Shown here piece by piece: positions 3,410 through 60,275 of a DNA stretch of 60,363 nt. Position numbers and translations under genes: made by a program. The DNA comes from an uncultured Candidatus Saccharibacteria bacterium. Lineage in GTDB: Bacteria; Patescibacteriota; Minisyncoccia; 2-02-FULL-40-12; GWA2-44-9. Numbering within the stretch: the first letter of the stretch is position 1; the number at the start of each line of letters is the position of its first letter. The notes beneath the pieces are model-generated. The model was not told the origin of the DNA, did no database searches, and saw nothing but the letters and a program-made list of their open reading frames with translations. Where the stretch lies: NCBI GenBank assembly GCA_964356795.1, contig CAYHIK010000006.1:10286-70648 (forward strand), given 5' to 3'.

Positions 3410-3782
3410 TAAACATAACTATTTTACCATTAAAGCCTCGCATCTCCTTGTAAAAAAGTGGATAAGAAAGGACCACAAAAATCCAATAAGTACAGCGACG
3501 CTCCTAGATTGCAGACGCTGAAAAAGCGTTACGCAATAAAGCCAATTCTCCGCGTACACTTCTTCGCGTTTACGTCTAAGAATTTGCTCTCAAAAGACCC
3601 CCGATCGAACACACCGCCTCGATTACTAAGCTCAACCTTCACGCAAAATCAATAGAATAGATTTCTAAAGTAACGCAACGATATTCATTACAGTACATTC
3701 ATATACTATCCTACATATACATTACAATAGTATAGTAGTATGCGCGCAAAAAATAACCCTAATAACTCTTAAACCCTAGAGA

Positions 3783-4517
3783 TTAAAGACTAAAGAGTGA
3801 GCGCGCATTCTCTGTTGTACGCTCAAAGAGAGATGATGGACTCACCCCCACCATCGGGGCAATCGCGTTACCCACATGCTCTATATATGAAGGCTCATTC
3901 CGCTTCCCTCGATAGGGGGCCGGGGCGAGATACGGAGCATCAGTTTCTAGTAACAATCGATCCAGTGGAATCATCCGAATCATTGCCTCGTACGATTTTG
4001 AAAAAGTCGCGATTGCGTTGAGCCCAATATAATACCCAAGATTCAGATATGCGCGAGCCTGCTCCTCTGTTCCGTTGAAACTATGAATCACTCCCCGCGC
4101 CTTGTGTGATTGAAGAAGAGAAATCATATCATCATGCGCATCCCTGCAGTGGATGACTAATGGTTTCTCTTGTGCGATTTTTAGAAATGCCAAAAATCTC
4201 TTCTTCTGCTCTTCGCTATTCTTCGAACGATAGTAGTCGAGTCCAACTTCTCCTATGGCGACAACTTTTGGACTATCGAGTAGCTGCTCGAACAGAGAAA
4301 CGTCCTCCCCGGGGTCGTTTGGGTGTAATCCAACAGAGGCATACATACCATCATAAACATTACTAAGCTCGATTGCCTGTCGAGATGTCTCTAAATCGGT
4401 ACCAATACAGACCATCCCGATGCCTCTATCGAGGGCTCGGCGAATTACCTCATCCCTATCAGCGTCATACTGGGGAAACTGCGGATGACAGTGGGAGTCG
4501 AATATTTTGTACTGCAT
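3783..4517 (-). CDS. tatD: TatD-family metal-dependent hydrolase/DNase
   Basis: N-terminal FDSHCHP, GLHP, EVGLDYYR, HCRDAHDD, ETDAPYLAP motifs. ATG at 4517. Confidence 0.85.
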   Translation of the reverse strand: MQYKIFDSHCHPQFPQYDADRDEVIRRALDRGIGMVCIGTDLETSRQAIELSNVYDGMYASVGLHPNDPGEDVSLFEQLLDSPKVVAIGEVGLDYYRSKNSEEQKKRFLAFLKIAQEKPLVIHCRDAHDDMISLLQSHKARGVIHSFNGTEEQARAYLNLGYYIGLNAIATFSKSYEAMIRMIPLDRLLLETDAPYLAPAPYRGKRNEPSYIEHVGNAIAPMVGVSPSSLFERTTENARSLFSL

Positions 4518-4587
4518 ATAAGAATATTACATATTTTCACGTACGACGTGAAAAGAAATAAGAGTAAAATGGCGTGATTGCTAACTA

Positions 4588-6066
4588 TTAGCTACGCCTT
4601 GGAAACATCGGATTTCCGATGGATGCCTGGATTGAATCCCCCTCTATGAGCACTCTACGCGGTTCAACGGCAAACATCTTAAAGATACGCGCTGAAGTCT
4701 CGGGCATGAATGGCTGAAGGAGCCATGCAATATGGATGAGCATGCCAACGCATGTGAGAAGTGTTTCTTCTTGAGCGTCACCCTCTTGCTTCCATGGCTG
4801 GCGATCGTTGAGATACGCATTCGCAGAGGCAATCTTTGCCCACACCGAAGCGACAGCATCGTGCAATCTAAATGCATCGAATGCCTGATGATAAGCGGAG
4901 TCGTCGAATATCTGCTCGTAGAATGCCTCTGCGGGGCTTAAATTTGACCTATAAGCCCTGTTTCCGGGAAGTTTCGAGTCCACGAGCGTTGCAATTCGTT
5001 GTACGAGATTTCCTAAACCATTCGCGAGGTCGGAATTGTAGCGCTTTTCGAGGTTTGCATGAGAAAAATCACTATCATCAGTGCTCTGAAGTTCTCGCAA
5101 CATAAAGTGCCGAACGACTTCGGTGGGTTGTTGGGCGAGCAACTCAAATGGATCGATTACATTTCCTAATGATTTCGACATTTTCTCACCATCAACCGTA
5201 ATAAAGCCGTGCACATAGATGCTCTTGGGGACTTCGAGCCCCGCAGAAAGCAACATAGCAGGCCAGAATATTGCGTGGAAGCGCGTGATGTCTTTTCCGA
5301 TGAGATGCACATCGGCTGGCCAGAATGACATCCCCTCCTGATTCGTACCGTATCCAAGCGCAGAGATATAATTCGTAAGCGCGTCAGCCCACACATACAT
5401 CGTTTGACTCTCATCTCCTGGAACAGGAATCCCCCACGGCAACTGCGCTGATGGACGCGAGAAGCTCACGTCTTCAGCGTCGTCGAGGAGGTTTAGAATC
5501 TCGGATTTACGAGTCTCTGGAACGATATTGAGGCGTCCACTCTGAATGAGCTCCTTCACTTTTCCGGTGTAGTTTGTGAGCTTAAAGAACCAATTCTCCT
5601 CTTCGACGAGTTCGGGTTTGGTCTTGTGGAGCGGGCATACGCCATCGACGAGCTCGCTCGATTTGATAAACGCCTCATGCCCAACGCAGTAATGACCCGA
5701 GTACGATTTCTTATATATATCGCCCTTTTCTGCCATTGCGCACCATATCTTCTGAGCGGAGGGCCAGTGGCGAACCCTGTCTGATGTACGAATAAAATCA
5801 GTATTTGAGATGCCAAGTCGCGTCGCCAATCCCCCCACCTTACCCGCGATATTATCTACAAATTCCTGGGTTGGGACTCCCGCTTGTTCGGCAACCCGCA
5901 TAATCTTGGTGCCATGCTCGTCGGTGCCCGTCACGAATCGAACATCGTCGCCCATCATGCGACGATATCGAGCGATTGCGTCGCCCTGCACGAGCTCTAA
6001 TGCAAACCCGATGTGAGGCGGGGCATTCGTGTAGACGATGGCTGTGGTGATATAAAAACGCGCCAT
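4588..6066 (-). CDS. metG: Methionyl-tRNA synthetase
   Basis: MARFYITTAIVYTNAPPHIGFALE (HIGH-type) and KMSKSLGN. Start moved to the internal ATG 6066 because the longer ORF overlaps rsmI. Confidence 0.9.
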   Translation of the reverse strand: MARFYITTAIVYTNAPPHIGFALELVQGDAIARYRRMMGDDVRFVTGTDEHGTKIMRVAEQAGVPTQEFVDNIAGKVGGLATRLGISNTDFIRTSDRVRHWPSAQKIWCAMAEKGDIYKKSYSGHYCVGHEAFIKSSELVDGVCPLHKTKPELVEEENWFFKLTNYTGKVKELIQSGRLNIVPETRKSEILNLLDDAEDVSFSRPSAQLPWGIPVPGDESQTMYVWADALTNYISALGYGTNQEGMSFWPADVHLIGKDITRFHAIFWPAMLLSAGLEVPKSIYVHGFITVDGEKMSKSLGNVIDPFELLAQQPTEVVRHFMLRELQSTDDSDFSHANLEKRYNSDLANGLGNLVQRIATLVDSKLPGNRAYRSNLSPAEAFYEQIFDDSAYHQAFDAFRLHDAVASVWAKIASANAYLNDRQPWKQEGDAQEETLLTCVGMLIHIAWLLQPFMPETSARIFKMFAVEPRRVLIEGDSIQASIGNPMFPRRS

Positions 6067-6103
6067 TTGATAGGCGCATCGTACCACCGAATTGACGTAT
6101 GTA

Positions 6104-6793
6104 CTAGCGCTTTGGCCCAACCACGACCACGAACTCGCCGAGCACTTCATCGGCAGAAAGTGCGGCAGCGACCTCTTCGACAGTGCCCCGATAGAGGGTT
6201 TCGAACTTTTTGGTGAGCTCACGAGCCACGAGAATGGGACGATGTGGGGTTTCGGCAACCACAAACGCATCCTTCATTTCGGCGAGGCACTTCTCGATGC
6301 GATATTTCGACTCATAGAATACGATTGTGTCCTCGGATTCTGCTAATTCTCTGACAAACGTCTGCCGTCCCTTCTTGTGTGGTACGAATCCCCAGTATTG
6401 ATATCGGTCGGCAGGAAATCCGCTTACCGAGAGCGCTGCAACTCCGGCATTTGCGCCCACGATTGGCACCACACGCAAATCGGGAATCTCAACGAGTAAT
6501 AATTCAATGAGCCGGCCCCCTGGGTCGTTGATCCCCGGCGTTCCCGCATCGCTCACGAGTGCGAGATTTTTTCCCTCATGGAGCATCGCAAGCACACGAT
6601 CATCAACCCCCTTCCCGCTGTGCTGGTGATACGCGATGAGCGGTTTATGAATCTCAAAATGCGCGAGAAGTTTTACCGTCACGCGCGTGTCTTCGCACAG
6701 AATCGCATCCACCTCTTTCAGCGTCTCAATGGCCCGCAGGGTGATGTCCTGCAGGTTTCCAATGGGCGTTGCAACAATCGAGAGCGTCGCCAT
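6104..6793 (-). CDS. rsmI: 16S rRNA (cytidine1402-2'-O)-methyltransferase
   Basis: LSIVATPIGNLQDITLRAIETLKEVDAILCEDTR is a typical RsmI N-terminus. Confidence 0.85.
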   Translation of the reverse strand: MATLSIVATPIGNLQDITLRAIETLKEVDAILCEDTRVTVKLLAHFEIHKPLIAYHQHSGKGVDDRVLAMLHEGKNLALVSDAGTPGINDPGGRLIELLLVEIPDLRVVPIVGANAGVAALSVSGFPADRYQYWGFVPHKKGRQTFVRELAESEDTIVFYESKYRIEKCLAEMKDAFVVAETPHRPILVARELTKKFETLYRGTVEEVAAALSADEVLGEFVVVVGPKR

Positions 6794-10036: not shown

Positions 10037-10319
10037 CGCGGGGTGGAGCAGCGGTAGCTCGTCAGGCTCATAAGAAATTGTGACTTTACACAGAAATGTG
10101 TATCGAAAACACTCGAAACTGCGGGAAACCCCACCGGTTCATCCGAGGGCAATCCGCAACCAAGCCCCTCCTCCTCTCAAGGATTTGGGGAAGGCTCAGA
10201 GACTATAATGGGTGCATCCTCGCTCGCAAGAGACGGATGATGGGATAGTCCGACACTCCGAGGAATCGGATCAAAGCGAAATAAGGAGATGGTCGGGGGT
10301 TCGAATCCCTCCCCCGCAA
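10037..10319 (+). tRNA. Initiator-type tRNA(CAU) interrupted by a group I intron (possibly a pseudogene)
   Basis: 5' half CGCGGGG-UG-GAGC-AGCGGUA-GCUC-G-UCAGG-CUCAU (10037-10071). 3' end UGGUC-GGGGG-UUCGAAU-CCCUC-CCCCGCA-A (10290-10319). C1:A72 mismatch as in initiators. About 210 nt intervene after the anticodon. The expected CCUGA 3' anticodon-stem strand was not found. Confidence 0.6.
10072..10282 (+). ncRNA. Group I intron (3' boundary uncertain)
   Basis: P1 UCAU(10068-71)/GUGA(10080-83) with U:G at the splice site. P2 UACACA-GAAA-UGUGUA (10087-10102). AAACUGCGGGAAAC (10116-29) pairs with CCGCA (10154-58). CAGAGACUAUAAUGG (10197-10211). UCCGA-GGAA-UCGGA hairpin (10257-70). These resemble Azoarcus/Tetrahymena core segments recalled from memory. 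Confidence 0.65.
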
Positions 10320-12266: not shown

Positions 12267-12659
12267 ATGGACACGCTGTGGTTTTCGGTGGCTCTCGGAC
12301 TACTGGCATTCGCCCTCGGGGCGTGGTGGCAGCACAATCGGCTGAGCCGCTCCCTCACCAGCCTGAAGTGGTACCGGGCAAGCCACCTGCGTAAACAAGG
12401 GTGGTCCCTGGGATTCGGACAGTATGAGCTCCAATCTCTGGACGGCGGGAAGAACTGGTTCTCCGTCATCAGCGTCGGTGGCGGCGGGATCCAAGCAACG
12501 GGGCCAGCGGACCTGAAGCTCTTGGACCACTTGGCGGCATGGGATGCGCTGACCGCTCGGGTTGTCCGAGGTGGTCCCCTGAACCTATCACACGCAGACG
12601 ACCGAAAACTCCTGGAGCGCGCTGGACTCCAGGCGGTCTCCCGCGAGTGCACGTCGTAG
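12267..12659 (+). CDS. Hypothetical membrane-anchored protein
   Basis: GGAGG upstream of the ATG, N-terminal TM helix, terminator follows. Confidence 0.55.
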   Translation: MDTLWFSVALGLLAFALGAWWQHNRLSRSLTSLKWYRASHLRKQGWSLGFGQYELQSLDGGKNWFSVISVGGGGIQATGPADLKLLDHLAAWDALTARVVRGGPLNLSHADDRKLLERAGLQAVSRECTS

Positions 12660-26443: not shown

Positions 26444-26472
26444 TTGAAAAAATGCAAATTCTGTGCTATACT
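26444..26472 (+). promoter_or_regulatory. Sigma70-like promoter for ssrA
   Basis: TTGAAA, 17 nt, TATACT; the tmRNA 5' end lies 10 nt downstream. Confidence 0.6.
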
Positions 26473-26481
26473 AGTATTTGA

Positions 26482-26829
26482 GGGGATGATCGGTTTCGAC
26501 ACTGCATCATACCTTCACGATGCCATATGCGGTCGGCCGGTAACCGCACAAAACACCGGTCAAACATATAACTGGCTATTCTAACGCCAATTACGCGTTC
26601 GCCTAAGGGCGTCGCGCATCGCACCCTGACGCTTGCTACGGGATTCTGCGGTGTCATCTAGCTCGCTCTGGTTGACCACACGTGTGTCGTGGTCCGCCGA
26701 AACAATGACACACTAGTTTGCGATTATTTTTCCGGTTCTCTACTCGCGAGCAACATACCAAATCGGATACTGTGGTAGCACATCGTGATCGTATCGTAGT
26801 GGACTAGGGTTCGATTCCCTACATCTCCA
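26482..26829 (+). ncRNA. ssrA: tmRNA
   Basis: 5' GGGGAUGAUCGGUUUCGAC. Tag frame ..GYSNANYAFA ends with TAA at 26604-26606. 3' GGACUAGGGUUCGAUUCCCUA-CAUCUCC-A. The acceptor pairs with G3:U70. CCA is not encoded. Confidence 0.85.
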
Positions 26830-28348
26830 CACCCTGTGAGTTGTTAGTCGAAAGTAGCTGAAAAGCCTTGATAGGAAGCGAGAAATTAGCGGTTCCAAAT
26901 CCGTCCTCTTTGCTGTAGGTAAGTTTGTCCGTGAAAACTAGCTTTAGAACCATCCTCTTGTCCTCCAATGTGCCATTTGTCCATTTGCCATAAGGGTTTC
27001 CGATGTAATCTAGGACGCAATGCATAGCGGTTTCAAAATTAAGCGCCATTGTCCGAGGAACCTTCATCCGTTCAATCAAAAGAGCCTCTTCTACGGAAAG
27101 CTCCGAAATACGACCCTCATAGGCCCTCAGCAAATCCTCTGCCCCTGTCTTTACAACCCTTGATACAAGCGCTCGCTTCTCCTCTCTAATGCTTGAAAGT
27201 TCTTGCTCGTGATTCTTAACCTCTTTGTTCGCTCGAATCATTCTCTTATTCCAGGACTCCGTGAATAGTGCTATAGAATAATCAATCAATTCCCTCCTAG
27301 GAGTTGCCCTCTTCAAGATGCTCTCGAAATCGCCCTCGATTTTTTCTCTCCTCACGCTTTTATTCTTCCAAGCACATTCATGTCCAGTAAACCGATAGTA
27401 TGGCAATCTTACGCTCCTGCCAGTACACCAACTCGCCGTCAGTGGGTGTTCACAATCGCTACAAACCACACTTCCGCGTAGCGGAAAATCCGCACTCATC
27501 CCCTTGTGAGAATTAAATCTTGCTCGACCGCTCAATCTATCCTGTATCTGACGAAAAACAGCCAGGGATACTAATGGCTCGTGATGCCCTATCCGTAGCT
27601 CAACACCCCATCTTGGATATTCTATATACCCAGCGTAGATAATCCTCGTGAGCAACCTCTTTACTACTTCGAGATAGACGCGTTTGCCACGCGCAAAATC
27701 TCTACTTTGCAAAAAGCCTTGCACCTCAACCTGTGATGCAAATCTTCCAGAGGCAAATCCTTCAAGCGCCTCCCTGATTGTCCCAGCTACGGGCTCTACT
27801 GGTCGCAATAACTTCCCATGAGTAGGATCTTTCGATGCTCGGTAGCCTGGCGGCGGGAAAAATGGCCAGTACCCAGATTCAAGTCGCGCTCTCTGCTTCT
27901 GCATAACCTGCCTCTTATTCTGTTCTCGTTCGAGTTGGTTCTGTGCTGCAAATATCGTCTCAACAAAAGTCCCCTCTGGAGAGTCGTCAAAGTTATAATT
28001 AAGACATCTTGGTATAACATTCCTGACCTTGAAAGCACTTCTTAAATTCCAGTGAAATACGGTGTCACGAGCGAATCGCTTGAGATCGTCAAAGATAACG
28101 ACGTATTGCTCATGCGGCTTACCGTCAATATACGCTAGAAGCTCCCTCATCGCCGGACGATTCAAAAAGTCACCACCTCCAGTGATTGTGTCGGGAAATA
28201 CCCTCTCGGTATGCCAACCGTTTTCAGCGGCGAATGCTCTACACCGATGCTCTTGGCTATCCAGTCCATGCCCCTCAGACTTCTGACGACCAGAGGACAC
28301 TCTGCAGTAGATTAATGCCCTGCGTTGTTGCTCATCATTCAAAGTCAT
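26819..28348 (-). CDS. Large serine recombinase
   Basis: ALIYCRVSSGRQ catalytic Ser region, VVIFDDLKRFARD, Cys-rich zinc-ribbon region (CSDCEHPL), long coiled-coil C-terminus. The stop codon lies inside ssrA. Confidence 0.85.
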   Translation of the reverse strand: MTLNDEQQRRALIYCRVSSGRQKSEGHGLDSQEHRCRAFAAENGWHTERVFPDTITGGGDFLNRPAMRELLAYIDGKPHEQYVVIFDDLKRFARDTVFHWNLRSAFKVRNVIPRCLNYNFDDSPEGTFVETIFAAQNQLEREQNKRQVMQKQRARLESGYWPFFPPPGYRASKDPTHGKLLRPVEPVAGTIREALEGFASGRFASQVEVQGFLQSRDFARGKRVYLEVVKRLLTRIIYAGYIEYPRWGVELRIGHHEPLVSLAVFRQIQDRLSGRARFNSHKGMSADFPLRGSVVCSDCEHPLTASWCTGRSVRLPYYRFTGHECAWKNKSVRREKIEGDFESILKRATPRRELIDYSIALFTESWNKRMIRANKEVKNHEQELSSIREEKRALVSRVVKTGAEDLLRAYEGRISELSVEEALLIERMKVPRTMALNFETAMHCVLDYIGNPYGKWTNGTLEDKRMVLKLVFTDKLTYSKEDGFGTANFSLPIKAFQLLSTNNSQGVEM

Positions 28349-28626
28349 TCGAAAAGGGTGTCTAAATATCTTTCTATCATTGCACTTATTGTATCATGGG
28401 CCCGTTGTAATTCTTGAGCGCTCAACCCCAGGGCAAGCAGCGCCTTCACGCACTCTTCTAAAGATTTTATTGGCACTCTTTCTTCCAATTTACAATCAAG
28501 TTTAGTGAATACTCTCAACAAAACGTCCCCACACTCAAATACGCACCTAAAACATCGCCACACGACCCGCTTGAGCCGATTTCTTGTCGTCCTCAGAGGT
28601 TCTTTTCTCATTCGACAGCTCGACAA
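28345..28626 (-). CDS. Small ORF coupled to the recombinase (start uncertain, probably about 28530)
   Basis: ATGA overlap with the recombinase start. The 5' part overlaps the next ORF in another frame. Confidence 0.3.
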   Translation of the reverse strand: MSSCRMRKEPLRTTRNRLKRVVWRCFRCVFECGDVLLRVFTKLDCKLEERVPIKSLEECVKALLALGLSAQELQRAHDTISAMIERYLDTLFE

Positions 28627-28813
28627 GGTGTCGGATGAGGAGTTTCTTATCAGCTGCGCAATAATCGCTCTTATCGACTAGGCGATTAAAATGTCGCGAG
28701 ATCATACTTCTACTAAAATGGCCCGTCCGAATTGCCCTTGAGAACGCTACAAAATCTGAAAGCTGAGGATTCTCGCTCAACGCTGCTCTAAATCTGCGCT
28801 CGATAGACTTCAT
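28547..28813 (-). CDS. Hypothetical small protein (possible regulator)
   Basis: 88-aa ORF at the head of the recombinase operon. Confidence 0.35.
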   Translation of the reverse strand: MKSIERRFRAALSENPQLSDFVAFSRAIRTGHFSRSMISRHFNRLVDKSDYCAADKKLLIRHLVELSNEKRTSEDDKKSAQAGRVAMF

Positions 28814-28842
28814 TTGATTGATTTAATTAATTAATACAAAAA

Positions 28843-28915
28843 CCCACTTAATACTGATCAGGTGGATTGTCGCTAAACAACACCTGCCCAGTATTAAATG
28901 GGTATAGCGACAATC
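28843..28915. repeat. Two interleaved inverted repeats
   Basis: CCCACTTAATACTG (28843-56) pairs with CAGTATTAAATGGG (28889-902). GATTGTCGCTA (28865-75) pairs with TAGCGACAATC (28905-15). Confidence 0.7.
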
Positions 28916-29294
28916 GGTAGGTCGCTGGGAGAAACAAAAAATGCCTCTTCAGCGAGATCGAATTCTTGACTATTACGTCAGAAACTCAATTTCACTGAAC
29001 AGGCATTTTACAACCAGTTTTAATTGCTTGGTTAGGCAACAGTTCAGCTCCACTCTTTGGCAAGGGTCTTTTTTAACGAGGTTACCACGAATCCTCCTGT
29101 GAGTGGGGGCTTAAGCGAAGTCGCATCGACGCCGCTCAAGTCTATCTTTTATTTATAATGATCTAATCTATCCCTACTCGTATATTATAGCATATCGAAT
29201 ATTTTGGAACAACAATCTGCAGGATGTGAACTTCATCTATTCCTAAAAAAGACAGCGGTGGTACACTCGCTATATAATTTGAGATTGTAAATCC

Positions 29295-30059
29295 ATGCTC
29301 AATATCATCGGAAAACTGCTCATTGCCTCGATTATTTTTATTGGCGGGTTCTCCCTGCCTCGCAGGGATGCTCCACCCGCAACAACAAGTACGCCACCCC
29401 CTCCTATTGTGGTAAACACCCAGGATCCTACGCCGACTATTATCTCGAAGAGGAGGAGTGCCCCAACTCCAGCACCCACGACGAACCCACCCATCGCTAC
29501 ATCGACTCCGACACTCCAGCCGAGCCTCCCGCAAATCCATCAATCCATTTCGACGACCGTACCTCTCATAGCCACCGCCATACCGATACAGACGCCAAAC
29601 ATGGAGAAAGTGCTTTTAGACTCTCTGAGCAAAGTCTACACAGATAACCTACAAAAAATTGCTGAAATGCAAAAAGACTGGGAAGATCTGCAAGCTAAAG
29701 AAAAACCGATCTGGGACCAGATCGCCGTCATCAACCAAGCTCAAAAAGATTTAGGCTGTGGAAAATTTGACCTAGCACACACAACTGGCGAAATCGGTCA
29801 GAAGTGCAACCTATACGATGCCGAGGTCATGCAGCTGTCTGCCCAAATCTCGTCATTGACTAGCCAATACGCAGCATCTCACGGTTTTAGCGTTGCTCCA
29901 AGTACAAAATTTCAAGATACCGTTAGCGGTGCAGGAACCCACTACACGTTCTACTACGATGCTCAACTTGGACATGGCGATATCTATAATCAAGCAAACC
30001 CACTAGACCATCGCAGGGTTTATTGCTCTTCCGGGGTCTGCAATATTTATGGCCCCTAG
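29295..30059 (+). CDS. Secreted/anchored protein with Pro/Thr-rich linker (hypothetical)
   Basis: N-terminal TM, PPATTSTPPPP linker, Cys-containing C-terminal domain. Confidence 0.55.
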   Translation: MLNIIGKLLIASIIFIGGFSLPRRDAPPATTSTPPPPIVVNTQDPTPTIISKRRSAPTPAPTTNPPIATSTPTLQPSLPQIHQSISTTVPLIATAIPIQTPNMEKVLLDSLSKVYTDNLQKIAEMQKDWEDLQAKEKPIWDQIAVINQAQKDLGCGKFDLAHTTGEIGQKCNLYDAEVMQLSAQISSLTSQYAASHGFSVAPSTKFQDTVSGAGTHYTFYYDAQLGHGDIYNQANPLDHRRVYCSSGVCNIYGP

Positions 30060-30137
30060 CAGTGTAATCGTCGTATAGGACTACTAAGCTGAACCCAGCC
30101 CCCCATAGTTTATACTGCGGTATCGGTAGCTATGGTG

Positions 30138-31004
30138 TTACTGAAACTTTTTAACCCCTTCTTTGATTTCTTCTTCAGTGGAAGGCGGCGTGATGCTTAG
30201 ATAAAGTGAGTCTAGCTCGGCAAAACTCTTCCTATCACCAAGGTGACCATACAGCGCCTTAAGCTGTATGAGTGTGGAGCTCATTGCCGTGATTAGATGG
30301 CAAATGCTTTCACGCGTCCAATGGTATCCCGCCACAAGATCCTCATCTAACCCTTCAGAAAAAACATCAACGAACTCCATAACAGCTGGATATGAATTAT
30401 GGGGGTATTTAGAAAATAGTCTATATATAAAAGTCTTCATTTCCCTTATAGGAAGTTTTTCGCCCGATAAGGGGTGGGTGCCAAGGATTTCTTCATACTT
30501 CTGACGGCTCGTAGCTGCTTCTATAACCTCTCCCTTAAACCACTCAACAAGGTAGCTCCCCTTTTTATCCTCACTAAAGAGCATTATCAAGTCTAAATTC
30601 TCGTGTAGAGATCTGAGAAGTTCCAGCAACTCCTGGTTCCTGCCCGTCCTAGCTAGCCCAAATAAGACCTCCCACCTTCTCATAACTTTCCAGAAAAGGA
30701 GATAGACTGCGCATGCTTTTGTTTGTTCAATCGGCTTACGAATGTACGCCCGCAAACTTTTAATATAGGGGGTCATTTTATGAAAAATCGTCTCTAGTCT
30801 TGCAACGGCTTCTTCAATGCATGCCTCATCTTGCCTACGCTGAAACCCAGGATACTGTGGATTCCTACTTGCATACCTTTTCGCCGCGCCACTCCTGAAT
30901 TTCTCTCTAGCAGACTCGATAGACTCTTGAATAGACTCCCTTATCAATTCTCTCGGAGTTTTCTTAGGTGACATTTTCTGGATATAAATAAATTCCCCCA
31001 CCAT
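30138..31004 (-). CDS. Hypothetical all-helical protein, island cargo
   Basis: 288-aa ORF, AT-rich. Only a vague resemblance to AbiV/DUF5677-like helical proteins (low confidence, from memory). Confidence 0.45.
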   Translation of the reverse strand: MVGEFIYIQKMSPKKTPRELIRESIQESIESAREKFRSGAAKRYASRNPQYPGFQRRQDEACIEEAVARLETIFHKMTPYIKSLRAYIRKPIEQTKACAVYLLFWKVMRRWEVLFGLARTGRNQELLELLRSLHENLDLIMLFSEDKKGSYLVEWFKGEVIEAATSRQKYEEILGTHPLSGEKLPIREMKTFIYRLFSKYPHNSYPAVMEFVDVFSEGLDEDLVAGYHWTRESICHLITAMSSTLIQLKALYGHLGDRKSFAELDSLYLSITPPSTEEEIKEGVKKFQ

Positions 31005-31028
31005 TCTCGCCTGCTGTAGTATCGGGCA

Positions 31029-31517
31029 TTATCCCTGTTCGATTTTTATACTCTTTGGATTCATAACGACGAAACCGGGTATTTTCTTAAAATCATCCTT
31101 ATCATCGAAGGTTAGAATATGCTCTATGCTATTGTTTTTCATAATCACACTATGAACCACATCTTGGAATCCAGAATTATATTGCAAAATACCCCTCTTA
31201 ACGTGATAGAAGAACTCGTTAAAATCATAATCCTTCAGTGGGCTGGTTGGCACAAACTCAATCTTTAAGGGCCCCAGCCGCCTTTCACCGGTAAATGAAT
31301 TCTCTATCTCTGTTACCTTATCCCGGTCCATCTTTTTTGTTATTACCAAGACCTTGACCATTTCAGTCATTGCCCACGAAGATGTTACGAGCTTATCGCT
31401 TGGAATATTTGAAAACGCGTCTAGAGCCTTGAGAACCCAGGCGTGCTTTTCTTTTTCATCATCGGTATTTGAGTAATAAGCGACGAGTATATTGGCGTCT
31501 AAGTATATACGCCTCAT
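31029..31517 (-). CDS. PIN-domain protein (VapC-like toxin)
   Basis: MRRIYLDANILVAYY N-terminus; later acidic positions (MTEMVKV, TFDDKD). Confidence 0.7.
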   Translation of the reverse strand: MRRIYLDANILVAYYSNTDDEKEKHAWVLKALDAFSNIPSDKLVTSSWAMTEMVKVLVITKKMDRDKVTEIENSFTGERRLGPLKIEFVPTSPLKDYDFNEFFYHVKRGILQYNSGFQDVVHSVIMKNNSIEHILTFDDKDDFKKIPGFVVMNPKSIKIEQG

Positions 31518-31675
31518 TTTCTTTTTTGTCTCACCTTGAATACAACCGGGAGCTTTGCCTGTATGGTTTGAATGGCACCAAAAACAACTATCTGCCCATC
31601 TCTTGTTCTAAATTTCACCTCTACGGGCTTCTTGATTGTCTTCAATGCTTGGAATTTTACGACCTTGTTTGCCAT
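31514..31675 (-). CDS. 53-aa putative antitoxin
   Basis: Below the ORF-track size cutoff. MANKVVKFQALKTIKKPVEVKFRTRDGQIVVFGAIQTIQAKLPVVFKVRQKRK. ATGA overlap with the PIN start. Confidence 0.5.
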   Translation of the reverse strand: MANKVVKFQALKTIKKPVEVKFRTRDGQIVVFGAIQTIQAKLPVVFKVRQKRK

Positions 31676-31759
31676 TTGAATCTTGATAGCTATCTAGGAG
31701 AATATATAATATTTCTTCGTAATTCCATAGGCACACCGCCTTGCAATATGATACTCACT

Positions 31760-31789
31760 GGGACGAGGGTTCAAATCCTGGCATGTGAC
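31760..31789 (+). other. tmRNA/tRNA 3'-end-like fragment
   Basis: GGGACGAGGGTTCAAATCCTGGCATGTGAC; T-arm-like with 4 of 5 stem pairs. Confidence 0.35.
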
Positions 31790-31863
31790 TATGGAACACT
31801 GACAAATCTAGTGCCTATCAGCGGATTTCCCCGATTCATCATGAGTTGGTAGCCTGCAAATAT

Positions 31864-31907
31864 GTAGGATTCCAGTTGATTCCAATTATTTCGTATCATC
31901 TCCACCA
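31864..31907 (+). other. Displaced, decayed original ssrA 3' end (attR-side repeat)
   Basis: GTAGGATTCC..GATTCC..CATCTCCACCA. It shares CATCTCCAC with 26822-26830 and retains CCA. Confidence 0.55.
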
Positions 31908-31916
31908 AATAAAAAT

Positions 31917-31946
31917 ACTCGCCCGCATGGGTGGGTATTTTTATTT
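31917..31946 (+). terminator. Intrinsic terminator (likely the original ssrA terminator)
   Basis: ACUCGCCC-GCAU-GGGUGGGU followed by AUUUUUAUUU. Confidence 0.65.
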
Positions 31947-32034
31947 GCGTAGACGAAGACGGAAGGAACCGAACAATTCTTGCGCCTAGCTAATTTAGTG
32001 GTATTATATTGCACGTTGAGATAGGAGGTAGCGC

Positions 32035-32310
32035 GTGCTCTTTTTAAAAGTCCTTCTTGGTGTTGTCGGAGCCCTTCTCCTATTAACTGCCCTGGAGGGC
32101 TCTTTTATCCTTATCCTCAGGCTATCCATCGCAACAGTACGTCCGGCCTTGATGCGCATATGGGGTTTTTGCTTTGACAGAAATATCCCATTTCCAAATT
32201 GGTGGGAGGGGCTACAAGGATTGATGGTGTCATCCCTAGTGGCACTAATCGTATGGCTCACCATCTGGATAACCATCGGAATAAAGCTCTACTCCTACCT
32301 TTCTGTTTAG
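32035..32310 (+). CDS. Small membrane protein (hypothetical)
   Basis: GTG start with TAGGAGG upstream, 3 TM segments, terminator 32352-32388. Confidence 0.5.
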   Translation: MLFLKVLLGVVGALLLLTALEGSFILILRLSIATVRPALMRIWGFCFDRNIPFPNWWEGLQGLMVSSLVALIVWLTIWITIGIKLYSYLSV

Positions 32311-32489
32311 ATTTTGTCTAACTCATCTCGACACCAGACCAATCAAATTCAGCGCACGACCTAATGGGTACGGCGCTTTTTCTTTTTCTCCGCGAGGCGC
32401 GTAGGACTACCGCCAACAGAATCTCCCTTTTGGGAGCTTCTGTGCTTTCTGTGAGTGGGCGCAAAATTCACGCGGGCCCTGAGACTAAC

Positions 32490-32518
32490 TTGACAATATT
32501 AATTGAATATGCTATCAT
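32490..32518 (+). promoter_or_regulatory. Consensus-like sigma70 promoter
   Basis: TTGACA, 17 nt, TATCAT. Confidence 0.6.
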
Positions 32519-38326: not shown

Positions 38327-38764
38327 TTATGACTGCTCTTCGTGTATCTCAAAGCCAAGCTGGCGTACCATCGCTAAGTACTCACCCCGCTCGGGAGTGT
38401 CCTGCTCGCTTTCGTGTCGTGCGGAAAATCGCACAGAGCCGTCACTGAATACATAATATCGATGGCCAACCCGCCCATTAATCGTATAAATCTTTCGTGG
38501 ATGATTTTCGGGCATATCCCTTGAAGCCAACTTCTCCATCGCACCGACCACACTCTCATGCGCAACGCGCTCAATGTCTTGTCGAGTCGCAGGTTCAATC
38601 CGCGAGACCTCTTCAGATAATTCCTGCTGGTGTGCAAGCCATGCTGGCCCTTCGATGCGCGCAATCGCCTCAACGGTGCCCATGGGATTGGTGCGTAAAT
38701 TCATGTGCGCTGCTTTTTCTTGGACCGGTGGCGGCGCGTGTTGTTGTTCGGGTGAATTCGGCAT
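38327..38764 (-). CDS. Hypothetical protein
   Basis: 145-aa ORF; a shared bidirectional terminator lies at 38298-38328. Confidence 0.45.
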   Translation of the reverse strand: MPNSPEQQHAPPPVQEKAAHMNLRTNPMGTVEAIARIEGPAWLAHQQELSEEVSRIEPATRQDIERVAHESVVGAMEKLASRDMPENHPRKIYTINGRVGHRYYVFSDGSVRFSARHESEQDTPERGEYLAMVRQLGFEIHEEQS

Positions 38765-38841
38765 ACACCCATCATATCCTGTGATTCCAGGTACACAAGT
38801 TGAATATTGCGAAAATTATGGTAAAATTCGATGTTGTCAAT

Positions 38842-38913
38842 GGCCCTATCGTCTAACGGTTAGGACACCACCCTTTCACGGTGGTAATCGGGGTTCGATT
38901 CCCCGTAGGGCTG
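38842..38913 (+). tRNA. tRNA-Glu(UUC)
   Basis: GGCCCUA..CCACC-CUUUCAC-GGUGG..CGGGG-UUCGAUU-CCCCG-UAGGGCU-G. Confidence 0.85.
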
Positions 38914-38933
38914 CAAATTATCTAGGACACTCT

Positions 38934-39431
38934 ATGGCAGGCAATGTAATCTATCCGCCAAAACACGAAGAGACTCGAGAGCCAATTATTTTTCTTGCTG
39001 GTCCGATTCAAGGAGCGCCAGATTGGCAGAAAGAGGCCATAAAAATAATTCATTCCCTTCGCCCAGATGTCTATATCGCTAACCCTCGACGGGATTATCT
39101 AGACGGAGAATTTGTTTACGAAAAGCAAGTAGATTGGGAGACAGAATATCTTAACAAAGCAGCAAATAATGGAGCTATCATATTTTGGCTTGCTAAAGAA
39201 CTTAAACACGATTGTGAAAGAGCATATGCACAAACTTCTAGATTCGAAATTGCAGAGTGGAAGACAAGATATGAAAAATCAAAGTTCAATCTGATTATCG
39301 GTATTGAAGACGGCTTTACTGGTGGTCGCTACATAAAGCGCAGAGTTTCACAGGATTGCCCCGATATTAAAATACTAGATAATTTAGAAGAAGTTTGTCG
39401 GAATGCTTTGGAGCACGTATTTCCATCTTAA
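38934..39431 (+). CDS. Nucleoside 2-deoxyribosyltransferase-like protein, AT-rich paralog
   Basis: IIFLAGPIQGAPDW. Starts 20 nt after tRNA-Glu. Clearly lower GC than its neighbours. Confidence 0.55.
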   Translation: MAGNVIYPPKHEETREPIIFLAGPIQGAPDWQKEAIKIIHSLRPDVYIANPRRDYLDGEFVYEKQVDWETEYLNKAANNGAIIFWLAKELKHDCERAYAQTSRFEIAEWKTRYEKSKFNLIIGIEDGFTGGRYIKRRVSQDCPDIKILDNLEEVCRNALEHVFPS

Positions 39432-39483
39432 GATAGTCTCCTCTATTGTGTTCCACCCTAGAGACTTGTAGGCTGCAAACGTC

Positions 39484-40533
39484 ATGAAGATTGCCGCAAT
39501 TGAAACGTCGTGCGACGAGACCGCGGTCGCGGTCATCGAAATATCCGATGACCGCCTTGCTGTGCTCTCAAATGTCATCTCGAGCCAAATTGCGATGCAC
39601 GAAAAATTCGGAGGGGTCGTGCCCGCGCTTGCGGCACGTGAGCACGCAGTCAACATCGGCCCCGTATTTGCTGCGGCGATGAAATCAGCGGGTATCACCG
39701 ACCCCTCACGCGAGCTCGATAGTCTTGCAGTTACTCGTGGCCCAGGCCTCGGACCCGCCCTCCTTGTGGGGCTCACGTTTGCGCGCACCATGGCGTGGAA
39801 GCTCGGTCTACCCCTCGTTGGCGTCGACCACATGGATGGCCATGTGCACTCCAACTGGCTCGGACGAGAATCTATGCCCACCAACCTCTTCCCCGCATTG
39901 AATCTGATTGTATCAGGCGGACACACCGACCTCGTCCTCATGCGCGACCACGGAGCGTATGAAATCATCGGAGAAACCCAAGACGACGCCGTCGGCGAGG
40001 CGTTCGACAAAGTCGCACGCCTCATTGGATTCTCATACCCCGGCGGACCAAAAGTTTCCAAGGCGGCGCTCACTGGAAATCCAAACGCATACCCGCTTCC
40101 TCGCCCCATGCTTCATTCTGATAATCTCCACTTCTCATACAGTGGACTCAAGACCGCGGTCCTTTATCTTATCCGTGACATCACCGGCGGAACACGAGAA
40201 CTCACCGATACTGAAAAGTCCGACATCGCCGCATCATTCCAAGAAGCCGCCATCGACGTGCTCATACAAAAAACAAAACGCGCAGTGGGCCTGCACGACG
40301 TGCAAACAGTCATGCTTTCTGGTGGCGTGAGCGCAAACACGCTCCTCCGCGAACGACTCACATCGCTCGGCGCATCGCTCGGCGTGCAATGCGTCATCCC
40401 CGCCCTCGAATACACCACCGACAACGCCGCAATGATTGCGGTCGCTGGGTATTATGCGTTCCAGAAAAAAACAACCGCCTCCTCATGGGAAGCGGTTCGT
40501 ATGGATGCTAACCTTCGTCTGGGGGCGGAGTAA
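39484..40533 (+). CDS. tsaD: tRNA N6-adenosine threonylcarbamoyltransferase
   Basis: IAAIETSCDETAVAV, HM.GH, SGGVSAN. Confidence 0.9.
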   Translation: MKIAAIETSCDETAVAVIEISDDRLAVLSNVISSQIAMHEKFGGVVPALAAREHAVNIGPVFAAAMKSAGITDPSRELDSLAVTRGPGLGPALLVGLTFARTMAWKLGLPLVGVDHMDGHVHSNWLGRESMPTNLFPALNLIVSGGHTDLVLMRDHGAYEIIGETQDDAVGEAFDKVARLIGFSYPGGPKVSKAALTGNPNAYPLPRPMLHSDNLHFSYSGLKTAVLYLIRDITGGTRELTDTEKSDIAASFQEAAIDVLIQKTKRAVGLHDVQTVMLSGGVSANTLLRERLTSLGASLGVQCVIPALEYTTDNAAMIAVAGYYAFQKKTTASSWEAVRMDANLRLGAE

Positions 40534-57412: not shown

Positions 57413-57452
57413 CAAATGGCCACTCCTATTCCGTAGGAATGGCTGGCCATTT

Positions 57453-57479
57453 GTCCTGAGGACACAAAGTCCGAAGGAC
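57453..57479 (+). repeat. tRNA-spacer hairpin motif, copy a
   Basis: GUCCU-GAG-GAC-ACAAA-GUC-CGA-AGGAC. Confidence 0.6.
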
Positions 57480-57492
57480 TACAATAGTACCC

Positions 57493-59968: not shown

Positions 59969-60010
59969 CACTTCGCCACTCCTTGTTCTGGAGGATTGGC
60001 TGGCGAAGTG

Positions 60011-60036
60011 CCCTAGAGCGCATAGGCGCGACAGGG
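60011..60036 (+). repeat. tRNA-spacer hairpin motif, copy c
   Basis: CCCU-AGAG-CGC-AUAG-GCG-CGAC-AGGG. Confidence 0.55.
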
Positions 60037-60062
60037 CCACAGAAGTTTGTAACTGGCCATTT

Positions 60063-60089
60063 GTCCTGAGAACACAAGGTTCGAAGGAC
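60063..60089 (+). repeat. tRNA-spacer hairpin motif, copy d
   Basis: GUCCU-GAG-AAC-ACAAG-GUU-CGA-AGGAC. The inner stem covaries with copy a. Confidence 0.6.
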
Positions 60090-60135
60090 TACAGAATATC
60101 AGCGACAGGGCTACAGAAGTTATCTTAAAATCGAA

Positions 60136-60208: not shown

Positions 60209-60249
60209 CAAATGGCCGCTCAATATTCTGTGAAGTTGGTCGGCCATTT

Positions 60250-60275
60250 GCTCCGAGCGCATAAGCGCGAAGAGC
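60250..60275 (+). repeat. tRNA-spacer hairpin motif, copy e
   Basis: GCUC-CGAG-CGC-AUAA-GCG-CGAA-GAGC. Confidence 0.55.

Follow-up and report, generated by a model that had tools for sequence, protein, structure and literature searches.

How can an element that encodes a large serine recombinase (LSR), rather than a tyrosine integrase, come to occupy the 3' end of ssrA, and what becomes of the tmRNA gene and of the recombinase gene when it does so? This question is raised by a 60,363-nt stretch of DNA from an uncultured Candidatus Saccharibacteria bacterium (Patescibacteriota), referred to below as the window (contig CAYHIK010000006.1 of assembly GCA_964356795.1, forward-strand positions 10,286-70,648). 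A first-pass annotation had proposed that an island is inserted in the 3' end of ssrA and that the original terminus of the gene has been pushed aside. Our analysis bears this out, the original flank (CA and terminator) being displaced by 5,075 bp, and makes it very probable that the island is an LSR-integrated element whose own attachment site, attP, lies inside the LSR gene. The features on which this reading is built are the following.

26482..26830, plus strand: ssrA (tmRNA), complete up to and including the discriminator A and a single C, with CCA unencoded in the context of the left junction attL (ARAGORN, RF00023 and the sequence itself).
26819..28348, minus strand: LSR in its integrated-state form, 509 amino acids (aa), with its last three codons and stop inside ssrA and its catalytic motif RVS(S18) intact.
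26822..26830, plus strand: attL core CATCTCCAC; the family-wide minimal core TCCAC is 26826-26830, and the minus strand encodes V-E-M of the LSR.
31789..31896, minus strand: detached 3' end of the LSR gene, equivalent to the attP P arm; 35 codons (IRNNWNQLESYIFAGYQLMMNRGNPLIGTRFVSVP) with the stop at 31789-31791, in frame with the LSR after excision only.
31897..31905, plus strand: core CATCTCCAC of the right junction, attR.
31906..31948, plus strand: displaced original ssrA 3' flank, namely CA (completing CCA) and an A-tract/stem/T-tract intrinsic terminator, an architecture found directly 3' of ssrA in relatives.

The tmRNA gene, previously placed at 26482-26829 with a tag ending in NANYAFA, was recovered both by ARAGORN (26482-26830, tag GYSNANYAFA*) and by the Rfam covariance model RF00023, which gave a full-length match at 26482-26832 (99.7 bits); the two agree, with an end at 26830 or 26832. 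As had been described, the sequence directly shows the 5' end GGGGATGATCGGTTTCGAC, a T arm TAGGG-TTCGATT-CCCTA and an acceptor, GGGGATG/CATCTCC, that has the G3:U70 pair. A gene for SmpB is located 1.4 kb upstream of ssrA. The relatives of the window organism are all assemblies of the candidate phyla radiation (CPR)/Patescibacteria (Paceibacterota, Yanofskybacteria and similar). In most of the 13 closest ssrA loci inspected, an uninterrupted ...CTCCAC runs into an A-tract/stem/T-tract terminator within about 40 nt; the intact junction that had been suggested as a check thus exists in relatives, with an architecture matching that of the displaced flank, and positions 31897-31948 of the window look just like an undisturbed ssrA 3' junction. 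CCA is encoded in the ssrA gene of only one of these 13 relatives and is unencoded in seven of the eight tRNA genes of the window. The loss of the encoded CCA at attL is therefore expected to be harmless, and CCA would have to be added enzymatically in this organism.

Within the 60-kb window CATCTCCAC occurs exactly twice, at 26822-26830 and 31897-31905, both copies being on the plus strand. As 8 of 100 shuffles also reached at least two matches, the 9-nt repeat is weak evidence by itself, and it takes its context and the comparative data to make it convincing. The downstream copy reads CATCTCCACCA at 31897-31907, going on as CCA and straight into a hairpin (31904-31948) with 19-bp arms and A and T tracts, which folds at -27.6 kcal/mol (z = -6.9; none of 200 shuffles folds as well). 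The downstream repeat with encoded CCA and the clean terminator reported earlier are thus confirmed. The interval between the two copies had also been described as AT-richer than its surroundings, and windowed profiles place it outside the range of the rest of the window in both GC content (0.446 over 5,075 bp against 0.531, the lowest of 180 equal-sized outside windows being 0.501) and tetranucleotide composition (a distance of 0.352 against a maximum of 0.197 elsewhere). Two further details of the annotation did not hold. The element's own end does not rebuild the tmRNA 3' end, since host sequence reaches the discriminator base and only 9 nt are shared. The tmRNA/tRNA-3'-like fragment at 31760-31789, taken as a sign of repeated use of the site, gave no match to the tRNA and tmRNA covariance models even at E <= 10; a permissive Rfam scan of 31500-32100 returned only weak matches, located on the terminator hairpin.

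The closest homologue of the LSR, P0001 (62% identity), is encoded on contig L081 tail-to-tail with a tmRNA gene. L081 and L001, a contig of a metagenome-assembled genome in GenBank, belong to one species, with flanks 99.9-100% identical, and differ by 4,568 extra bp which in L081 directly follow the tmRNA gene and carry the LSR. The sequence CATCTCCACA is present once in L001 and once at each end of the insert in L081. The empty host site (attB) of L001 corresponds to the left part of the L081 attL joined to the right part of its attR, so that L001 reads ssrA-CATCTCCACA-terminator. This layout is the same as that of the empty site reconstructed for the window organism, ...GATTCCCTA-CATCTCCAC-CAAATAAAAATACTCG..., whose counterpart is the reconstructed circle junction of the element, ...ATTATTTCGTAT-CATCTCCAC-ACCCTGTGAGTTG.... 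On these comparative grounds, the pair of alleles is best read as the outcome of attP x attB recombination giving attL and attR. A search of related genomes for an empty site had been proposed beforehand, and such an allele exists for this sister element.

Both ends of the window island are shared more widely. Positions 31849-31905 are 82% identical to the matching end (P arm) of the independent L081 insert, and the attL P' arm and attR P arm are homologous to the ends of the islands in L081, L082, L086 and L088, the same ends bounding islands of 7,207 bp in L082, 6,717 bp in L086 and 5,261 bp in L088. Over the five island pairs, the identity between attB and attP extends over 9, 10, 6, 11 and 7 bp, and only TCCAC is common to all five. 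This brackets the crossover to these 5 bp, among which the exact dinucleotide would lie. Such a short identity is as expected for serine integrases, unlike the tens of bp of tyrosine integrases.

The 509-aa recombinase described on the strand opposite to ssrA, with its stop inside the tmRNA acceptor/T stem, is the open reading frame (ORF) at 26819-28348. It matches the Resolvase (PF00239, 6.7e-21) and Recombinase (PF07508, 23.7 bits against a cut-off of 21.1) families of Pfam as well as PHROG 95 'integrase' (5.9e-63). When aligned to the TP901-1 integrase (3bvp), its motif RVS(S18) falls on the catalytic serine motif, and it is nearly invariant in the family alignment, in which the four cysteines are likewise invariant or nearly so; all family-invariant catalytic and structural residues are kept in the window protein. 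The LSR shares no more than 21-25% identity with integrases from annotated phage records and falls under every NCBIfam equivalog cut-off. The structure was modelled on a homologue in its free form, P0047, standing in for the window LSR. The AlphaFold2 model (mean predicted local distance difference test score, pLDDT, of 88) has long helices that pair, 344-392 with 396-424, and Foldseek retrieved full-length serine integrases (Bxb1, PhiC31, LI integrase) as its best matches. Judged by sequence, predicted fold and the comparative attP x attB evidence, the window enzyme is an LSR. Its stop codon lies inside the tmRNA gene because the LSR frame crosses the recombination site, which is a feature of the whole family.

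In the integrated copies, the LSR frame passes through the core and runs on in the antisense of the host RNA gene, for 12 nt in the window, 48 nt in L086, 57 nt in L082 and 108 nt in L081. The protein is conserved up to ...S-Q-G-V-E-M, V-E-M being encoded by the reverse complement of CATCTCCAC, and beyond this point the integrated LSRs end in translated T-arm antisense, for example W-G-I-E-P or A-G-I-E-P. When the LSR frame is instead continued into the sequence to the left of the attR core, a conserved ending, (I/V)(R/K)N(N/S)WNx(I/L/F)E(S/D)(Y/H)I(F/Y/L)..., appears in all five islands, with 27-38 residues from the core V to the stop; reconstituted in this way, the window LSR has 544 aa. The stretch at about 31855-31896, which had been taken for a decayed T arm, is thus instead the P arm of the element's attP, coding for the C-terminal 35 aa of the LSR. 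The same tail, ..V[ED]M-x-K-S-W-N-Q-L-E-S-Y-I-F-E.., is carried by 14 of the 120 best homologues, most of the others ending in T-arm antisense (..VEM-GIEP..). Over the tail codons, 27 of the 28 pairs have a ratio of nonsynonymous to synonymous change (pN/pS) under 1, pS being 0.27-1.27 and synonymous change near saturation, suggesting that the tail is under constraint at the protein level. In the P0047 model, a disordered linker (494-507), which is encoded by the att core, is followed by a C-terminal helix (506-525). The homologues with an intact tail, the tails found at attR and the P0047 model together indicate that the native LSR gene spans attP. The crossover would then be placed in a linker that tolerates sequence constraint, and integration would detach a conserved tail helix. 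As the P0012/P0022 sub-clade reads the core in another frame and has the same arrangement nonetheless, this arrangement is old.

In order to determine how far this organization extends, we scored 8,000 candidate proteins, of which 2,287 matched at E <= 1e-10; nearly all of them are unnamed or called 'recombinase family protein' and come from Parcubacteria-type assemblies. The view that a serine recombinase at ssrA is unusual holds when set against the tyrosine-integrase norm; given a family of this size, it is not an isolated case. Seven further homologues could be placed by their context: P0001, P0003, P0004, P0011 and P0012 beside tmRNA genes, and P0006 and P0086 beside tRNA-Ala(tgc). All seven lie tail-to-tail with the RNA gene, with the ORF running through the core, and tmRNA and tRNA-Ala both end in the alanine-type acceptor ...TCCA-C that makes up the common core. 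The site is occupied sporadically: of 62 related species representatives whose fetched stretch includes a tmRNA gene, none encodes a close LSR homologue anywhere on it. In IMG/VR, the window LSR found no match, and an alignment query found three distant relatives (42-46%) lacking informative context.

Free forms were also recovered. The fetched contigs encoding P0010, P0047 and P0112 have no tRNA or tmRNA gene. Contig L095 (NCBI JAWVHA010009090.1; 12,376 nt) carries a free-form LSR together with a PrimPol/AAA_25 helicase, ParB and a 686-aa Ser/Thr protein kinase, and its 55-nt terminal overlap indicates a circular molecule; it is a candidate for the plasmid-like or phage-like parent form of these islands. 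Taken together, the sequences point to a large family of small CPR/Patescibacteria elements, with integrated and free-circle members, whose LSRs would target tmRNA or tRNA-Ala genes.

Some neighbouring arrangements may be recorded here. In L055 (4001-5471), which is one of the 62 representatives, a very distant LSR (23% identical to that of the window) lies 48 nt from the tmRNA 3' end, tail-to-tail, suggesting that targeting of ssrA by serine integrases reaches beyond the family studied. In L093 and L094, a second copy of the core and P arm (GTGCGGATGGTGAGAGAAAGTTGGAATCAGA) about 30 nt after the stop of the free-form LSR forms a duplicated att-like site. L100 (3379-11571) encodes LSRs of 519 and 510 aa (23% identical) in what appear to be tandem islands at tRNA-Ala, and L096 (1285-5224) encodes a 461-aa second recombinase after ParB.

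We propose that 26831-31905 is a 5,075-bp integrative element that would have entered by site-specific recombination through its own LSR. The 3' strand of the ssrA acceptor stem would have served as attB, with the crossover within TCCAC, and attP would have been located within the 3' end of the LSR gene. Integration would split this gene into a 509-aa body at attL, which runs antisense into ssrA and stops after V-E-M, and the native 35-codon tail, stranded at attR 5 kb away; excision would restore the 544-aa enzyme. The mature tmRNA sequence would be unaltered, CCA being added enzymatically as for most tRNAs here. At the same time ssrA would have been stripped of its terminator, now 3' of attR; after attL, there is no terminator-like site on the ssrA strand until about 30123, and read-through transcripts of ssrA, if produced, would be antisense to the LSR mRNA. 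The window copy looks intact in its residues for catalysis and structure, in its two cores and in its tail, which is still open, and it may still be active. The exchange of tails could also have a regulatory role.

We tentatively extend this proposal in two directions, which as a whole we regard as possible but doubtful: that the split LSR gene acts as a state switch, the tailed enzyme being produced from the circle only and being competent for, or biased towards, integration, and that these enzymes are the first serine-integrase lineage specialised on alanine-type acceptor/T-arm DNA (tmRNA, tRNA-Ala). If the switch exists, the integrated copy would yield a tail-less enzyme with an arbitrary, host-encoded end, and this copy, facing antisense read-through from ssrA, would fall silent, favour excision or rely on the small 47-aa protein co-translated with it. 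Directionality would then be set partly by the product of recombination, beyond a separate directionality factor alone.

Several results weigh against an integrated, functional LSR element. The Zn_ribbon_recom domain of the LSR (PF13408) scores 22.8 bits, just under its cut-off of 25.3. The dyad symmetry that is typical of LSR att sites, scanned for around the core in eight attP and five attB sites, stayed at chance level throughout. Exact-pattern scanning of JGI metagenome contigs for the reconstructed attB of the window species, and scanning of the same contigs for the circle junction with a degenerate attP pattern of the window sub-clade, each returned no match. The only other copy, found by exact-sequence look-up of the window LSR, is L101, a 1.8-kb contig from a groundwater assembly (Hainich H41; ENA ERZ1292625) that shows the same attL junction at 99.94% identity, and no replication, transfer or packaging/virion genes were recognised in the 5-kb island with Pfam, PHROG and NCBIfam. 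The empty metagenome scans, the single junction type in L101, the apparent lack of replication and transfer genes and the absence of the conserved tail from the integrated LSR would all suit an island that entered as described and has since become a fixed relic, its tail-less LSR inactive or decaying under ssrA read-through. We hold this to be a real possibility and still an improbable one: the LSR retains every residue that is invariant in the family, the detached tail ORF at attR is intact over its 35 codons, with no frameshift and with its conserved motif, both cores are perfect, the compositional contrast is still strong, and the sister element is polymorphic within one species.

A different objection concerns the tail itself, which might not be a functional protein segment; the enzyme would end near the core, and the conservation would reflect a DNA-level constraint on the binding site in the P arm. 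The invariant TGG-AAY codons (W-N) are indeed also the invariant TTCCA of the P arm, integrated copies accept arbitrary host-encoded tails of 0-36 aa, and AlphaFold gives the tail helix only moderate confidence (pLDDT of about 67-76). However, the changes are biased to synonymous or conservative ones, as the pN/pS values above show, the frame stays open over 27-38 codons in each of the five islands and of the 14 free forms, a pattern like that of an amphipathic helix continues well past the half-site of about 25 bp, and the arrangement is held even in the P0012/P0022 sub-clade with its other core frame. We therefore consider a purely DNA-level explanation rather unlikely. It is extremely improbable that the 9-nt repeat is a coincidence, the LSR a resident resolvase or invertase, and the low-GC block unrelated acquired DNA with no defined ends. 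The modest shuffle statistics of the 9-mer leave room for this when taken alone, but the repeat coincides with the tmRNA end, with the GC and tetranucleotide boundaries and with the displaced terminator, and both ends are homologous to those of four independent islands, one of them with an empty-site allele, which effectively refutes it. An element integrated by its own LSR, with attP inside the LSR gene, thus stays our preferred reading.

The remaining features of the locus are a possible ssrA promoter and the other genes of the island.

26444..26472, plus strand: promoter-like site for ssrA, TTGAAA-17-TATACT with an extended TG, a consensus match only, ending 10 nt upstream of the tmRNA 5' end.
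28345..28488, minus strand: short ORF, about 47 aa from an uncertain start, with a stop that overlaps the start of the LSR gene (ATGA); it is kept upstream of the LSR in L081, L082, L086 and L088.
28547..28813, minus strand: 88-aa ORF, the first gene of the minus-strand array; an 86-aa ORF in the corresponding position of L100 is 32% identical to it.
28814..29294: AT-rich divergent intergenic region (GC 0.40) with several inverted repeats (28842-28903, 28938-29009).
29295..30059, plus strand: 254-aa cargo protein that has a hydrophobic segment at its N-terminus and a stretch rich in Pro and Thr, no family match.
30138..31004, minus strand: 288-aa orphan cargo protein, its sole match being a weak one to an uncharacterised PHROG.
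31029..31517, minus strand: PIN-domain protein of 162 aa, putative toxin (PF01850, E = 8.9e-7, 30 bits against a cut-off of 23.6).
31514..31675, minus strand: 53-aa ORF, putative antitoxin, overlapping the start of the PIN gene by 4 nt, no family match.

The cargo is as the first-pass annotation had listed it: two small coupled ORFs, a Pro/Thr-rich protein, a 288-aa orphan and a PIN-domain protein with a 53-aa partner. Searches of Pfam, PHROGs and NCBIfam assigned no function to the 47-, 88-, 254-, 288- and 53-aa proteins, and the same three collections revealed no tyrosine recombinase domain in any ORF of the island, leaving the LSR as its only recombinase. An inovirus-like prophage was ruled out, as matches to a morphogenesis ATPase and to virion genes were absent in Pfam and PHROG. 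Once the circle is excised, the genes on the minus strand would all lie in a single co-directional array (88-aa ORF, 47-aa ORF, full-length LSR, 53-aa ORF, PIN and 288-aa orphan), with the 254-aa protein as the sole divergent gene across the AT-rich inverted-repeat region. This region is likely to be the control region. The 47-aa ORF is a candidate accessory or directionality factor, and the 88-aa ORF is possibly a regulator. L081, L082, L086 and L088 have the small ORF upstream of the LSR in common and do not share cargo, which fits a conserved integration module with variable cargo. Compared with VapBC-like type II toxin-antitoxin pairs, the PIN-domain protein scores above its family cut-off and the two ORFs overlap by 4 nt; the 53-aa ORF matches no family.

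Other observations concern the surroundings of these sites. The tmRNA 3' end recurs in L001 as an 18-nt copy (ATTCCCCACATCTCCACA) some 200 nt downstream of the empty attB, at 12310-12406 (L081 reverse complement, about 5534-5640). Next to this copy comes the hairpin that also trails several window tRNA genes, and the copy has the look of a scar left by an older event or of the original end of ssrA. Downstream of attB, 1.25 kb (L001 12106-13358 and L081, reverse complement, 5337-6631) are about 80% identical amid surroundings that are 99.9-100% identical, so that the region past ssrA appears to be a variable hotspot independent of the LSR island. In the window, GC is still low at 31950-32500, beyond attR, and further low-GC patches (0.45-0.47) are found at 38501-39500 and 3501-5000, the former adjoining tRNA-Glu (38842-38914) and possibly representing another small insertion. 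The trailer in question is conserved directly 3' of the tRNA genes at 57413-57480, 59970-60040, 60060-60100 and 60210-60275. It consists of a hairpin (A..GGCCACTCC...GGCTGGCC..) and then CCTGAG..CCGAAGGACTACA, and may serve the tRNA clusters of this lineage in processing or termination. Finally, an initiator-type tRNA(CAT) at 10037-10318 on the plus strand (CGCGGGG...CTCATAA / ...GGTTCGAATCCCTCCCCCGCAACA), uncalled by ARAGORN, has its anticodon loop split by a group I intron (RF00028, 63 bits, 10060-10272).

The effect of the island on the window genome looks mild: the tmRNA appears intact, and the genome gains a putative toxin-antitoxin pair and a putative secreted protein. The family as a whole contradicts the rule that assigns tRNA and tmRNA genes to tyrosine integrases only, and island finders that require a tyrosine integrase or long tDNA repeats would miss LSR elements. 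A gene that is trimmed and restored by its own reaction would also be a natural model for the effect of the integrase C-terminus on activity and directionality. As the core CATCTCCAC is conserved across many CPR tmRNA genes, these integrases and their sites of about 50 bp are candidate single-protein DNA-insertion tools for organisms that are hard to manipulate.

The window LSR resembles the PhiC31, Bxb1, TP901-1 and A118/LI integrases in its domain order, a resolvase domain with the catalytic serine, a recombinase domain and a putative zinc ribbon with a long coiled coil. It differs from the LSRs of phages and those of integrative conjugative elements (ICEs) in that its family targets tmRNA or tRNA-Ala instead of a protein-coding gene, has attP inside the integrase ORF, resides in CPR hosts and shows no detectable dyad symmetry at its att sites. 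Our literature search returned no description of this LSR family, nor of any characterised serine integrase that uses a tmRNA or tRNA gene as attB. The chemistry is familiar, as is the geometry of the split gene; the class of target, the phylum of the hosts, the tail that is both conserved and detachable, and the extent of the family appear to be undescribed.

Archaeal tyrosine integrases of the SSV1 type have an int gene that is split near its middle on integration. As in SSV1 and in the mycobacteriophage BPs, integration of the window element cuts one of its genes, so that the free and integrated states encode different proteins; BPs cuts its repressor and SSV1 splits int near the middle, whereas the window LSR is trimmed of a short tail. 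In BPs, attP inside the repressor gene provides integration-dependent immunity and the integrase is a tyrosine recombinase (PMC4557955).

Islands of tRNA and tmRNA genes with tyrosine integrases are bounded by an intact tDNA on one side and by a displaced copy of the tDNA 3' end on the other, with the integrase gene beside the tDNA, and ssrA is a recurrent hotspot for them (Williams 2002; Islander, PMC4383910); the software built to find such islands works with the rule that only tyrosine integrases target tRNA and tmRNA genes (PMC4383910). The window element shares this layout, from the intact tDNA and the displaced 3'-end copy to the adjacent integrase gene and the ssrA site. Unlike these islands, it encodes an LSR, its repeat measures 5-11 bp instead of tens of bp, and it carries no 3' part of the tDNA (9 nt shared, 5 family-wide). 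A 2026 survey of 430,000 proviruses found that serine integrases prefer coding sequences and use a short core, that of tyrosine integrases being typically tens of bp long (PMC13626063). The tycheposons of Prochlorococcus, small islands located by tRNA or tmRNA genes, include an LSR in 27 of 937 cases (Hackl et al., preprint 10.1101/2020.12.28.424599). As judged from the preprint text, the likeness is one of lifestyle: small cargo elements in streamlined genomes with a site-specific integrase and replication of the primase/helicase type (PrimPol/AAA_25 in L095). Tycheposons, in contrast, belong to another phylum and overwhelmingly use tyrosine recombinases, and the att sites of their LSRs are undescribed in the preprint text.

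The closest precedent for the split gene of the window element is provided by the streptococcal ICEs that integrate at rumA with serine integrases. There, a direct repeat lies inside the integrase gene, the 3' parts of both genes are swapped and the C-terminus of the integrase is altered (Ambroset et al. 2016, PMC4701971). The rumA elements are large and conjugative and target a protein gene, whereas the window family comprises elements of 4.6-12 kb with no conjugation module, in which the recombinase reads an RNA gene in antisense and carries a conserved, detachable tail helix.

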